Shown: positions 55,379 through 56,617 of the stretch, piece by piece
Numbering within the stretch: the stretch's first letter is position 1
How the letters are laid out: each line of letters starts with the position of its first letter
Origin: Tortispora ganteri
Taxonomy: Eukaryota
Direction: 5' to 3'
Length of the DNA stretch: 64,000 bases
NCBI GenBank assembly: GCA_003707115.1
Contig: PPNB01000032.1
Location: 1 to 64,000 of the forward strand
Translations under genes and position numbers: made by a program
The notes under the pieces: generated by a model
The model's input: only the letters and a program-made list of their open reading frames with translations
What the model was told of the DNA's origin: nothing
Databases searched by the model: none

Positions 55379-56617
55379 TCAACGGCCTTCTACGGGTGCC
55401 TGGAGGAGCTCAGGGTACTTCGAGACAACGTAGTCAAGGTCTTTATCGCCGCGACCGGAGAGGTTGACGAGAATTGAGGCGTCCGGGTACTTTTTAGCGA
55501 GCTTGATAGCGTAGGCGATGGCGTGCGCTGATTCAAGAGCAGGAATGATGCCTTCAAAACGAGAGAGAGTAAAGAAAGCTTCGGCAGTTTCCTGGTCAGT
55601 AGCACCAGCACCCTTTTCAGTGCGGCCTTCGGTGGCGAGATAAGCGTGCTCAGGACCGACTGACGGGTAGTCGAGGCCTGAAGCGATGGAGTGGACCGGC
55701 GCCGGTTCGCCTTCCTTGTTATGGAGCATGATTGACTTGAACCCGTGCATGACACCGTCAGAACCATGGCTGATGGAGGCAGCGTGGTCACCAAGCTTGC
55801 TAGTACCTTTGCCGAGCGGCTCAACAGCGTGGAGCTTGACAGTAGAGTCGTCAATGAAACCTGAGAAGATGCCCATAGCGTTTGAGCCACCTCCGCAGCA
55901 GGCTACAACATGGTCCGGCAATTCGCCGATCAAGTCGAGAAACTGTTCGCGGGCCTCGATACCTACTATTTTCTGAAACTCGCGCACCATATAAGGGAAC
56001 GGGTGCGGGCCAACAACAGAGCCGATACAGTACAAGATATTTTCGGGGTCTTCGAGGTATGCCATGAATGCCTTGTCTACGGCTTCTTTAAGCGTCTGAA
56101 GACCTTCAGTTGCAGGAATGACTTTTGCGCCAAGGATTTCCATGCGAACAACGTTTGGTTTTTCCTTCTCCATGTCAACGGCGCCCATATATATATCGCA
56201 TTCGAGACCAAAATAGGCAGCAGCAGTAGCTAAAGCGACACCATGTTGACCAGCACCAGTTTCAGCGATGACTTTCTTTTTGCCCATGTGCTTTGCAAGC
56301 AACACTTCGGCCATACAGTGGTTCAACTTGTGCGCTCCCATGTGGTTGAGGTCCTCGCGTTTAAGGTAGATGCGACCACCACCGATGTGGTTCGACAATC
56401 GTTTAGCGTACGAGATAGGTGTCGGGCGGCCCTGATAGTTTTTGCGGATAGACCGCAATTCCGCTACGTAGTCGGCAGACTTCGAAATACGCTTATACTC
56501 AGCGTAAATTTTGTCCATCTCCGTCTGGAGATTTGGCGGGATAAATGAGCCACCATAGTTGCCAAAGTAGCCCTTGTCATTGGGGACGTGCAGCAGATAG
56601 GGTTTAGGAAGTGTCAT
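55379..56617 (-). CDS. trpB: Stand-alone tryptophan synthase beta chain, bacterial type
   Basis: [25 protein letters not shown] (PLP Lys), [55 protein letters not shown]; 412 aa with no alpha domain. Confidence 0.95.

Follow-up and report, generated by a model that had tools for sequence, protein, structure and literature searches.

The first 64,000 nucleotides of contig PPNB01000032.1 of the yeast Tortispora ganteri (GenBank assembly GCA_003707115.1), the whole of which is referred to here as the window, carry on the minus strand an intact, stand-alone tryptophan synthase beta chain (TrpB) of bacterial type, without an alpha partner (TrpA). By identity and phylogeny, this protein and its relatives in bacteria and a few fungi form a discrete subfamily of TrpB1, called HKLNHC here after a motif beside the catalytic lysine. 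The gene is already publicly annotated, as a hypothetical protein in T. caseinolytica and as TRP5-2 in Komagataella phaffii, yet unstudied. It is valuable above all because it draws attention to an apparently alpha-independent TrpB1 subfamily found in nature, some members of which are adapted to eukaryotes. Taken as a whole, the evidence makes it probable that the gene encodes a functional TrpB1, dependent on pyridoxal 5′-phosphate (PLP) and free of TrpA, which fungi acquired from bacteria in ancient times and which makes tryptophan (Trp) from indole and serine beside Trp5, the fused tryptophan synthase of fungi.

A stand-alone TrpB and its subfamily

The open reading frame (ORF) at 55379-56617 (-) is a single uninterrupted frame from ATG to stop, 412 amino acids (aa) long, with an in-frame stop three codons 5′ of the ATG. 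The initial annotation had described it as an intronless beta subunit of this length and position; the ORF listing agrees, and all four protein segments quoted there occur in the translation. The protein has a Pfam PALP match and scores 511.3 bits against the NCBIfam equivalog TIGR00263 (trpB; cut-off, 392.45), its residues 16-399 covering model positions 1-383 of 385, and solved TrpB chains in the Protein Data Bank (PDB) align to residues 16-398, the best being the reconstructed TrpB of the last bacterial common ancestor (LBCA; E = 3.9e-137). It differs from TrpB2, a proposed TrpA-independent beta chain that rescues indole: it stays below the cut-offs of the TrpB2-like models TIGR01415 (180.1 bits against 518.85) and PRK12391 (366), and PDB TrpB2 chains match it at E = 1e-31 to 1e-30 only.

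That all catalytic motifs are present, as first proposed, was borne out in an alignment of 63 clade rows, 52 other TrpB rows, and E. coli TrpB. H96-K97 of the Tortispora protein corresponds to E. coli H86-K87, the Schiff-base lysine and the histidine before it, and is found in 100% of the clade rows; E119, T120, G121-H125, G242-N246, D316, E362, and S387 are all kept as well, each in 100% of these rows. In E. coli numbering, which is used below wherever clade and canonical rows are compared, the residues kept both in the Tortispora protein and in every clade row comprise H86, K87, E109, T110, G111-H115, GGGSN 232-236, D305, E350, S377, G378, and R379. Among them, we take K87 to be the Schiff-base lysine, E109 the catalytic glutamate, T110 and G111-H115 the carboxylate-binding loop, and GGGSN 232-236 the loop that holds the phosphate of PLP. 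Canonical TrpB1 enzymes (E. coli and Salmonella TrpB, Pyrococcus furiosus TrpB1; alpha2-beta2) thus share with the Tortispora protein the fold family, the hidden Markov model, the catalytic lysine, E109, D305, and the PLP-phosphate loop, but their identity to it is at most about 53%, and they lack the clade changes R141K, Q94E, N/Q90H, and those in helix 6.

No alpha domain was detected in the window. Trp5 of Penicillium olsonii (P0147, 709 aa), the one named fungal Trp5 used for comparison, matches the 64 kb in tblastn with its beta part only (56566-55427, 46% identity), and its residues 1-300, the alpha part, reach a best E of 0.26, in keeping with the initial description of a gene with neither a fused alpha domain nor a neighboring trpA. 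The same beta-domain chemistry is expected of Trp5, and K. phaffii carries both types, but Trp5 is an alpha-beta fusion of about 700 aa that falls elsewhere in the tree.

The top database hit comes from T. caseinolytica NRRL Y-17796, a hypothetical protein (98% identity, 402/412) encoded on a 2.6-Mb contig. Apart from it, the 120 best relatives, at 69-75% identity, consist of a small number of fungal proteins and numerous bacterial or metagenomic ones. The named fungi among them are Dipodascopsis tothii, Kuraishia capsulata, two Basidiobolus species, Komagataella phaffii, and Morchella snyderi, and the named bacteria are Verrucomicrobiales, Nitratifractor, Sulfurospirillum, and Arcobacteraceae. 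The Dipodascopsis protein, at 75%, is closer than any listed bacterium, the closest non-fungal relatives being bacteria at about 70%. All 15 aligned members carry the signature GAHKLNHC[ML][AG]E beside the catalytic lysine. Identity is 60-75% within the subfamily and does not exceed 53% with full-length TrpBs outside it. The gap is equally visible among representatives at 50% identity, where the representative of the clade reaches 695 bits and the full-length protein ranked after it 432 bits (53% identity). In a 102-row tree, calculated with a quick tree search, the clade stands on a branch of length 0.42 with an SH-aLRT support of 100. Outside it fall the beta domain of Penicillium Trp5, other alpha-beta fusions, and the canonical TrpBs of Arcobacter, Poseidonibacter, Arenibacter, and a metagenome-assembled genome (MAG) of Hyphomicrobiales, each of these four genomes also carrying a clade copy. 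No fused clade member was found in the 120 top-ranking matches with a length of 722-2060 aa, a weak piece of evidence, with none above 59% identity and the alpha-beta fusions at 52% or less.

A quite different account, that the ORF is a fission product of TRP5, a bacterial contaminant, or a misassembly, is close to inconceivable, since general similarity to TrpB, and nothing more, speaks for it. Gene fission is ruled out by the separate placement in the tree together with the identity gap (46-47% to the Penicillium Trp5 beta domain versus 69-75% to clade members), so that the first view of the gene as something other than a split Trp5 stands. A contaminant or misassembly is opposed by the fungal genes on both sides, by bridging contigs of even depth, and by orthologues on a 2.6-Mb scaffold in T. 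caseinolytica and on Mb-size contigs in other yeasts.

Outside the subfamily, three Fusarium proteins (P0376, P0383, and P0384, from F. beomiforme, F. graminum, and F. sporotrichioides) are predicted as models of 871-1382 aa. The TrpB-like part in them shares 55-59% identity with the Tortispora protein and has the motif AHKINHCVGFA, which stands between those of the clade and of canonical TrpBs. One of these models also takes in hydrolase and monooxygenase domains. The three may represent another fungal TrpB-like lineage, perhaps located in metabolite clusters.

Bacterial relatives and the relation to TrpA

The likeness to extra-operonic bacterial TrpB paralogues that was noted at first sight is upheld by the nearest bacterial relatives, which are extra-operonic and in many cases belong to Campylobacterota, the former Epsilonproteobacteria. 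When prokaryotes were scanned at one genome per species, at least 80 loci were obtained, and at least about 30 of the listed prokaryotic loci hold clade members, at 59-69% identity. Around 24 clade loci, 147 ORFs lie within 3 kb, and the 106 nearest of them, roughly the two closest on each side, were scanned against Pfam; among these 106 flanking ORFs, neither TrpA (PF00290) nor any other tryptophan-pathway enzyme was found at any of the 24 loci. Whole-genome searches were made in 15 genomes with a clade copy, seven of which have a canonical TrpB as well. TrpA is present in seven, in every case on a contig other than that of the clade copy, and in five of the seven, it adjoins a second, canonical TrpB (576-644 bits, versus 512-541 for the clade copy). 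In the other eight (MAGs of Akkermansia, three Clostridia, Peptococcaceae, Kiritimatiellia, ‘Pseudomonas’, and a 0.7-Mb Gracilibacteria), TrpA was not found, and all hits above the trpB cut-off score 505-545 bits, that is, in the range of the clade; six of these genomes have one such gene and two have two. The absence of TrpA is suggestive only because all eight are MAGs of unstated completeness. In an uncultured bacterium, a gene of the Trp-repressor family (L028:2759-3100 (+), PF01371, E = 4.9e-17) lies directly upstream of the clade trpB (L028:3060-4280) and overlaps its start. On this evidence, the subfamily would have arisen in bacteria as an extra-operonic copy that is often the sole tryptophan-synthase gene of its genome, and would work without a dedicated TrpA as a PLP-dependent beta chain.

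Some loci show further features. A Lachnospiraceae MAG (G009) contains two canonical trpB-trpA pairs, a clade copy, and a fourth, partial hit, amounting to three or four TrpB genes (C8:3713-5633, C11:26676-28680, and C24:13889-15034), and could be a mixed bin. Other PLP enzymes lie beside clade trpB genes, namely a beta-eliminating lyase in Arenibacter (L007:7830-8852 (-)) and an aspartate aminotransferase in two Acutalibacteraceae/Ruminococcus MAGs (L011:2292-3566 (-) and L014:4126-5400 (-)).

Fourteen alignment positions are conserved within each group but different between them (at least 80% of clade rows and at least 70% of canonical rows), including N/Q90H, Q94E, R141K, Q142E, D168E, N171D, and W177Y. 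Helix 6 of the communication (COMM) domain reads TLKEAVD.AF.AY in the clade versus TLKDA.NEA.RDW in canonical enzymes, and R175 is unconserved in the clade. In the Salmonella enzyme, we take R141-D305 and K167 to belong to the allosteric switch, K167 to bridge to TrpA, and helix 6 to face it. The pattern of substitutions fits an enzyme that would no longer answer to an alpha subunit, and the TrpA independence of clade enzymes is inferred from it and from the genome context.

Stand-alone activity has been tied to six residues (Res6) in PMC11917138, which deals with plTrpB of Pelodictyon luteolum and with LBCA TrpB. Like the proteins considered here, for which TrpA-free activity is proposed too, these are TrpB1-type enzymes encoded outside a trp operon; in the case of plTrpB, the paper places TrpA nine genes away, reports moderate activation by TrpA, and ascribes the behavior to Res6. 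When mapped from a PDB alignment, only two of the six are shared by the Tortispora protein (T66 and S200), with D49, R55, F293, and K294 at the other four positions, so that any stand-alone activity here would rest on other residues; the comparison is uninformative as to whether such activity exists.

A change of function would be another way to read these substitutions. The enzyme might use a different nucleophile or donor, as in other beta-substitutions or with O-phosphoserine as in TrpB2, or might act mainly as a serine deaminase. This is rather improbable, even though the fixed changes beside the Schiff-base lysine (HKLNHC versus HK[TI]N[NQ]; Q94E; R141K) and the lack of linkage to trp genes lend it some color. 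E109, the TGAGQH loop, and D305, the last of which is presumably the catalytic aspartate characteristic of TrpB1, are invariant in the clade, the score is far under the TrpB2 model cut-off, a Trp-repressor gene precedes one clade member, and some genomes have a lone clade copy as their only TrpB. A ‘characteristic catalytic Asp residue’ of TrpB1 enzymes is mentioned in PMC11917138. Less credible again is a spare, TrpA-dependent beta subunit that docks on the alpha domain of Trp5 or stands in for a beta function that Trp5 has lost. It would account for the conservation of K167 and of most of the TrpB core, but the face of helix 6 has been rewritten and is conserved in its new form, TrpA is often not found in the bacterial hosts, and K. 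phaffii retains a complete fused TRP5-1.

The K. phaffii orthologue, TRP5-2 (PP7435_Chr3-0567, F2QVU7, P0007), resembles the Tortispora protein in falling into the same yeast subclade, in its 69% identity, and in being a stand-alone HKLNHC protein of 413 aa. The PMC4580311 supplement lists for TRP5-2 the peptide K.LNHCLAEALIAK.Q at residues 98-109, which matches P0007 exactly, in position as well, and for TRP5-1 the peptide K.INNALAQVILAR.R at residues 382-393, a position from which it follows that TRP5-1 is a separate, fused enzyme. According to the same supplement, two TRP5-2 peptides were detected in homogenate, and TRP5-2 mRNA is modestly higher on methanol, both in the chemostat (logFC 0.61, adjP 0.0064) and in fed batch relative to glucose (logFC 1.27, adjP 4.6e-5) (PMC4580311). 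In K. phaffii, the stand-alone TrpB is thus expressed and coexists with the fused TRP5-1. By analogy, expression of the stand-alone enzyme beside a fused Trp5 is likely in Tortispora too. Conservation, the bacterial genome context, and the K. phaffii data together point to TrpA-independent tryptophan synthesis from indole and serine as the most likely role. The yeast enzyme would condense free indole with L-serine to give L-tryptophan, serving to scavenge or detoxify indole beside the fused Trp5 rather than in its place.

The annotation of TRP5-2, ‘tryptophan synthase ... regulated by general control’, was made by similarity alone in PMC4580311. Literature searches returned no paper on the origin or activity of TRP5-2 or the Tortispora gene and none on a bacterial-type TrpB in budding yeasts; the catalogue of horizontal transfers that belongs to the genome paper on the budding-yeast subphylum (Shen et al. 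2018) may list the gene.

History in fungi and significance

A profile made from five ascomycete members added Ascoidea rubescens, Rhizina undulata, and a 419-aa protein to the fungal set. In two lists of 120 matches, the named fungi are Tortispora, Dipodascopsis, Kuraishia, Komagataella, Ascoidea, Morchella, Rhizina, and Basidiobolus. A more careful tree was calculated with 61 clade rows, 11 of them fungal (supports are given as UFboot/SH-aLRT). All the ascomycetes, that is, Tortispora, Morchella, Rhizina, Dipodascopsis, Kuraishia, Komagataella, and Ascoidea, form one clade (100/96), which splits into two sister groups, Pezizomycetes (100/99) and Saccharomycotina (99/96, five yeast genera). 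Within the yeasts, Kuraishia, Komagataella, and Ascoidea belong together (100/99), and Dipodascopsis joins Tortispora weakly (75/21). The sister of the ascomycete clade is a bacterial group rich in Campylobacterota (96/86), which would approximately mark the donor lineage, and Basidiobolus groups with a bacterial set that contains a Verrucomicrobiales MAG (98/93). When the tree is rooted on canonical TrpBs, Pseudomonadota with Gracilibacteria, then Bacteroidota with Spirochaetota, and then Bacillota branch before the fungi (supports, 96-100). The direction of transfer was therefore from bacteria to fungi, and a bacterial origin of the yeast TrpB is supported by this phylogeny. The initial annotation had proposed horizontal transfer into this yeast: the bacterial origin stands, the gene being nested in bacteria, but the event is not peculiar to Tortispora, as the ascomycete clade makes plain.

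The ascomycete proteins form a single clade that mirrors the species tree in most of its branching, which points to a transfer long ago and to losses since then. The simplest history would be a single acquisition before the split of Pezizomycotina and Saccharomycotina, with vertical inheritance thereafter and loss in most lineages. A recent transfer from bacteria into the Tortispora lineage alone could be argued from the nearest non-fungal relatives, which are bacterial at about 70% identity, from the lack of introns, and from the G+C content at third codon positions (GC3), the highest of the 32 ORFs in the window. It is nevertheless very improbable: Tortispora groups with four other yeast genera, and these in turn with Pezizomycetes, rather than with any bacterium directly, the Dipodascopsis protein is closer to it than any listed bacterium, and the relative synonymous codon usage (RSCU) is typical of the window.

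Of more weight, though still unlikely, is a history in which several transfers from bacterium to fungus or from fungus to fungus produced the seemingly patchy distribution. Only seven named ascomycete genera appear in the two lists of 120, Basidiobolus sits with a different bacterial group, one containing Verrucomicrobiota, and the pairing of Komagataella with Ascoidea departs from the species tree. A Neocallimastix protein (P0123/P0275) also falls in or near the clade, in another fungal phylum; it differs from the other members in its 593 aa, its N-terminal extension of about 175 residues, its motif AHKINHCMAQG, and its very long branch (1.38), on which placement is unsure. TrpB is named among the transfers from bacteria to Neocallimastigomycota in a preprint (bioRxiv 10.1101/487215). 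Several transfers do not sit easily with Pezizomycetes and Saccharomycotina as reciprocally monophyletic sisters, which vertical descent predicts, and monophyly of the 11 fungal rows could not be rejected.

A number of observations weigh against the favored explanation of an ancient, TrpA-free, indole-using TrpB. K167 is kept in 100% of clade rows, so that contact with an alpha subunit is conceivable. No enzyme assay of any clade member was found in the literature, and both TrpA independence and the indole/serine pair are read from sequence and context. The eight genomes in which TrpA was not found, one of only 0.7 Mb, are weak evidence given their unstated completeness. As for the history, Komagataella pairs with Ascoidea (99/89) and not with Kuraishia, a discordance that may reflect fungus-to-fungus transfer or a long-branch effect within the yeasts. 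A tree constrained to unite the 11 fungal rows is worse by 12.5 log-likelihood units (p-AU 0.134 in the approximately unbiased (AU) test), a result compatible with one acquisition as well as with two, with Basidiobolus in or out. The codons had been called host-like in the initial annotation, which holds for RSCU (r = 0.573 against the other 31 ORFs, where the window average is 0.536) but not for GC3, which at 0.567 tops the 32 ORFs (mean 0.439, standard deviation 0.073). Finally, a Gcn4-type motif is expected upstream of yeast amino-acid biosynthesis genes, and none (TGASTCA or TGACTC) occurs in the 876-bp region upstream of the gene.

A more far-reaching version of the favored explanation is put forward tentatively, as it falls slightly short of an even call. 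HKLNHC would be an undescribed TrpB1 subfamily that is permanently free of TrpA, with a rewired switch (R141K, Q94E) and a remodeled helix 6. It would salvage indole to tryptophan in bacteria that lack the rest of the pathway. Several hundred million years ago, one copy would have passed to an early ascomycete, and a few lineages of yeasts and cup fungi would have retained it as an indole scavenger.

Engineered stand-alone TrpBs are in wide use for the synthesis of tryptophan analogues, and natural alpha-independent TrpBs are, to our knowledge, few. A whole natural subfamily that apparently lives without TrpA would supply new starting enzymes, some of them already expressed in an industrial yeast, as K. 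phaffii TRP5-2 is, and it would amount to a natural experiment on the loss of allosteric dependence in tryptophan synthase. If the more far-reaching version holds, the yeasts that kept the gene already possess ready-made, eukaryote-adapted stand-alone TrpB biocatalysts. The interest attached to such enzymes can be seen in PMC11917138, where a natural stand-alone TrpB is presented as noteworthy. For yeast genomics, the gene would exemplify an old bacterial gene that survives in a few early-branching lineages, and it carries the caution that such genes are easily misread as recent transfers into the species at hand.

Chromosomal neighborhood

The TrpB gene is physically part of the yeast chromosome, as fungal genes flank it on both sides and contigs bridge it to them at even depth. 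The features of the locus are collected in Table 1.

Table 1. The TrpB gene of the T. ganteri window and its immediate surroundings
Feature	Position	Strand	Remarks
Stand-alone tryptophan synthase beta chain ORF (TrpB1 type, ‘HKLNHC’ subfamily)	55379..56617	-	Intronless, 412 aa, ATG start
EHD3-like gene of the 3-hydroxyisobutyryl-CoA hydrolase family (fungal neighbor)	53787..55235	-	PF16113 ECH_2, E = 1.2e-116
Spacer from the TrpB stop to the start of the EHD3-like gene, same strand	55236..55378	-	143 bp
Upstream intergenic region, presumed promoter, divergently shared with the 949-aa ORF	56618..57493	-	876 bp
949-aa ORF (fungal neighbor)	57494..60343	+	No Pfam domain; nearest by features are ascomycete DUF7603 proteins

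The position beside EHD3 given in the initial annotation is corroborated by the Pfam match of that neighbor, and its remark that no gap lies nearby is equally sound: the sole run of N in the window is a 100-N assembly gap at 26335-26434, about 29 kb from TrpB. On the EHD3 side, the next genes encode a mitochondrial-type EF-Tu and a CBS-domain protein, and farther neighbors include COX15, Hsp70, PEX11, malate synthase, NDH2, and copper amine oxidase; all 19 neighboring ORFs scanned have ordinary eukaryotic or mitochondrial domains or none. The 949-aa ORF resembles DUF7603 clusters with a feature score of 0.94, which comes from language-model features alone and is a lead only. The 876 bp upstream of TrpB contain no minus-strand ORF of at least 80 aa and no TrpA-like translation.

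Two public DNA runs (X1 and X2) contain 87% of the sampled words of the region, and their contigs were mapped to 53000-59000. These runs may be the source data of the window, in which case the assembler is independent and the reads perhaps are not. An 8268-base contig of run X1 spans 55404-59000 and so runs from TrpB across the intergenic region into the first part of the 949-aa ORF. The contig of the EHD3-like gene (54001-55344) is joined to that of TrpB through a 119-base bubble of two alleles with 30-base overlaps. This bubble, at 55315-55433, is found in the contigs of both runs, with allele depths of 41.9 and 35 and four differences. Contig depth across the region is 73-89 outside the contig junctions. 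Both flanks proposed for checking are thus linked to TrpB, one by a continuous contig and the other through the bubble. In T. caseinolytica, the orthologue lies on the 2.6-Mb scaffold, and those of other yeasts are on Mb-size contigs.

Between the window and the contigs of the two runs, all seven differences inside the TrpB ORF are synonymous, and so are all seven in the EHD3-like gene. Elsewhere in 54159-57330, both runs show fixed differences from the window. Together with the two alleles of the bubble, these suggest that the sample was heterozygous or of mixed haplotype and that the window was assembled from one haplotype.

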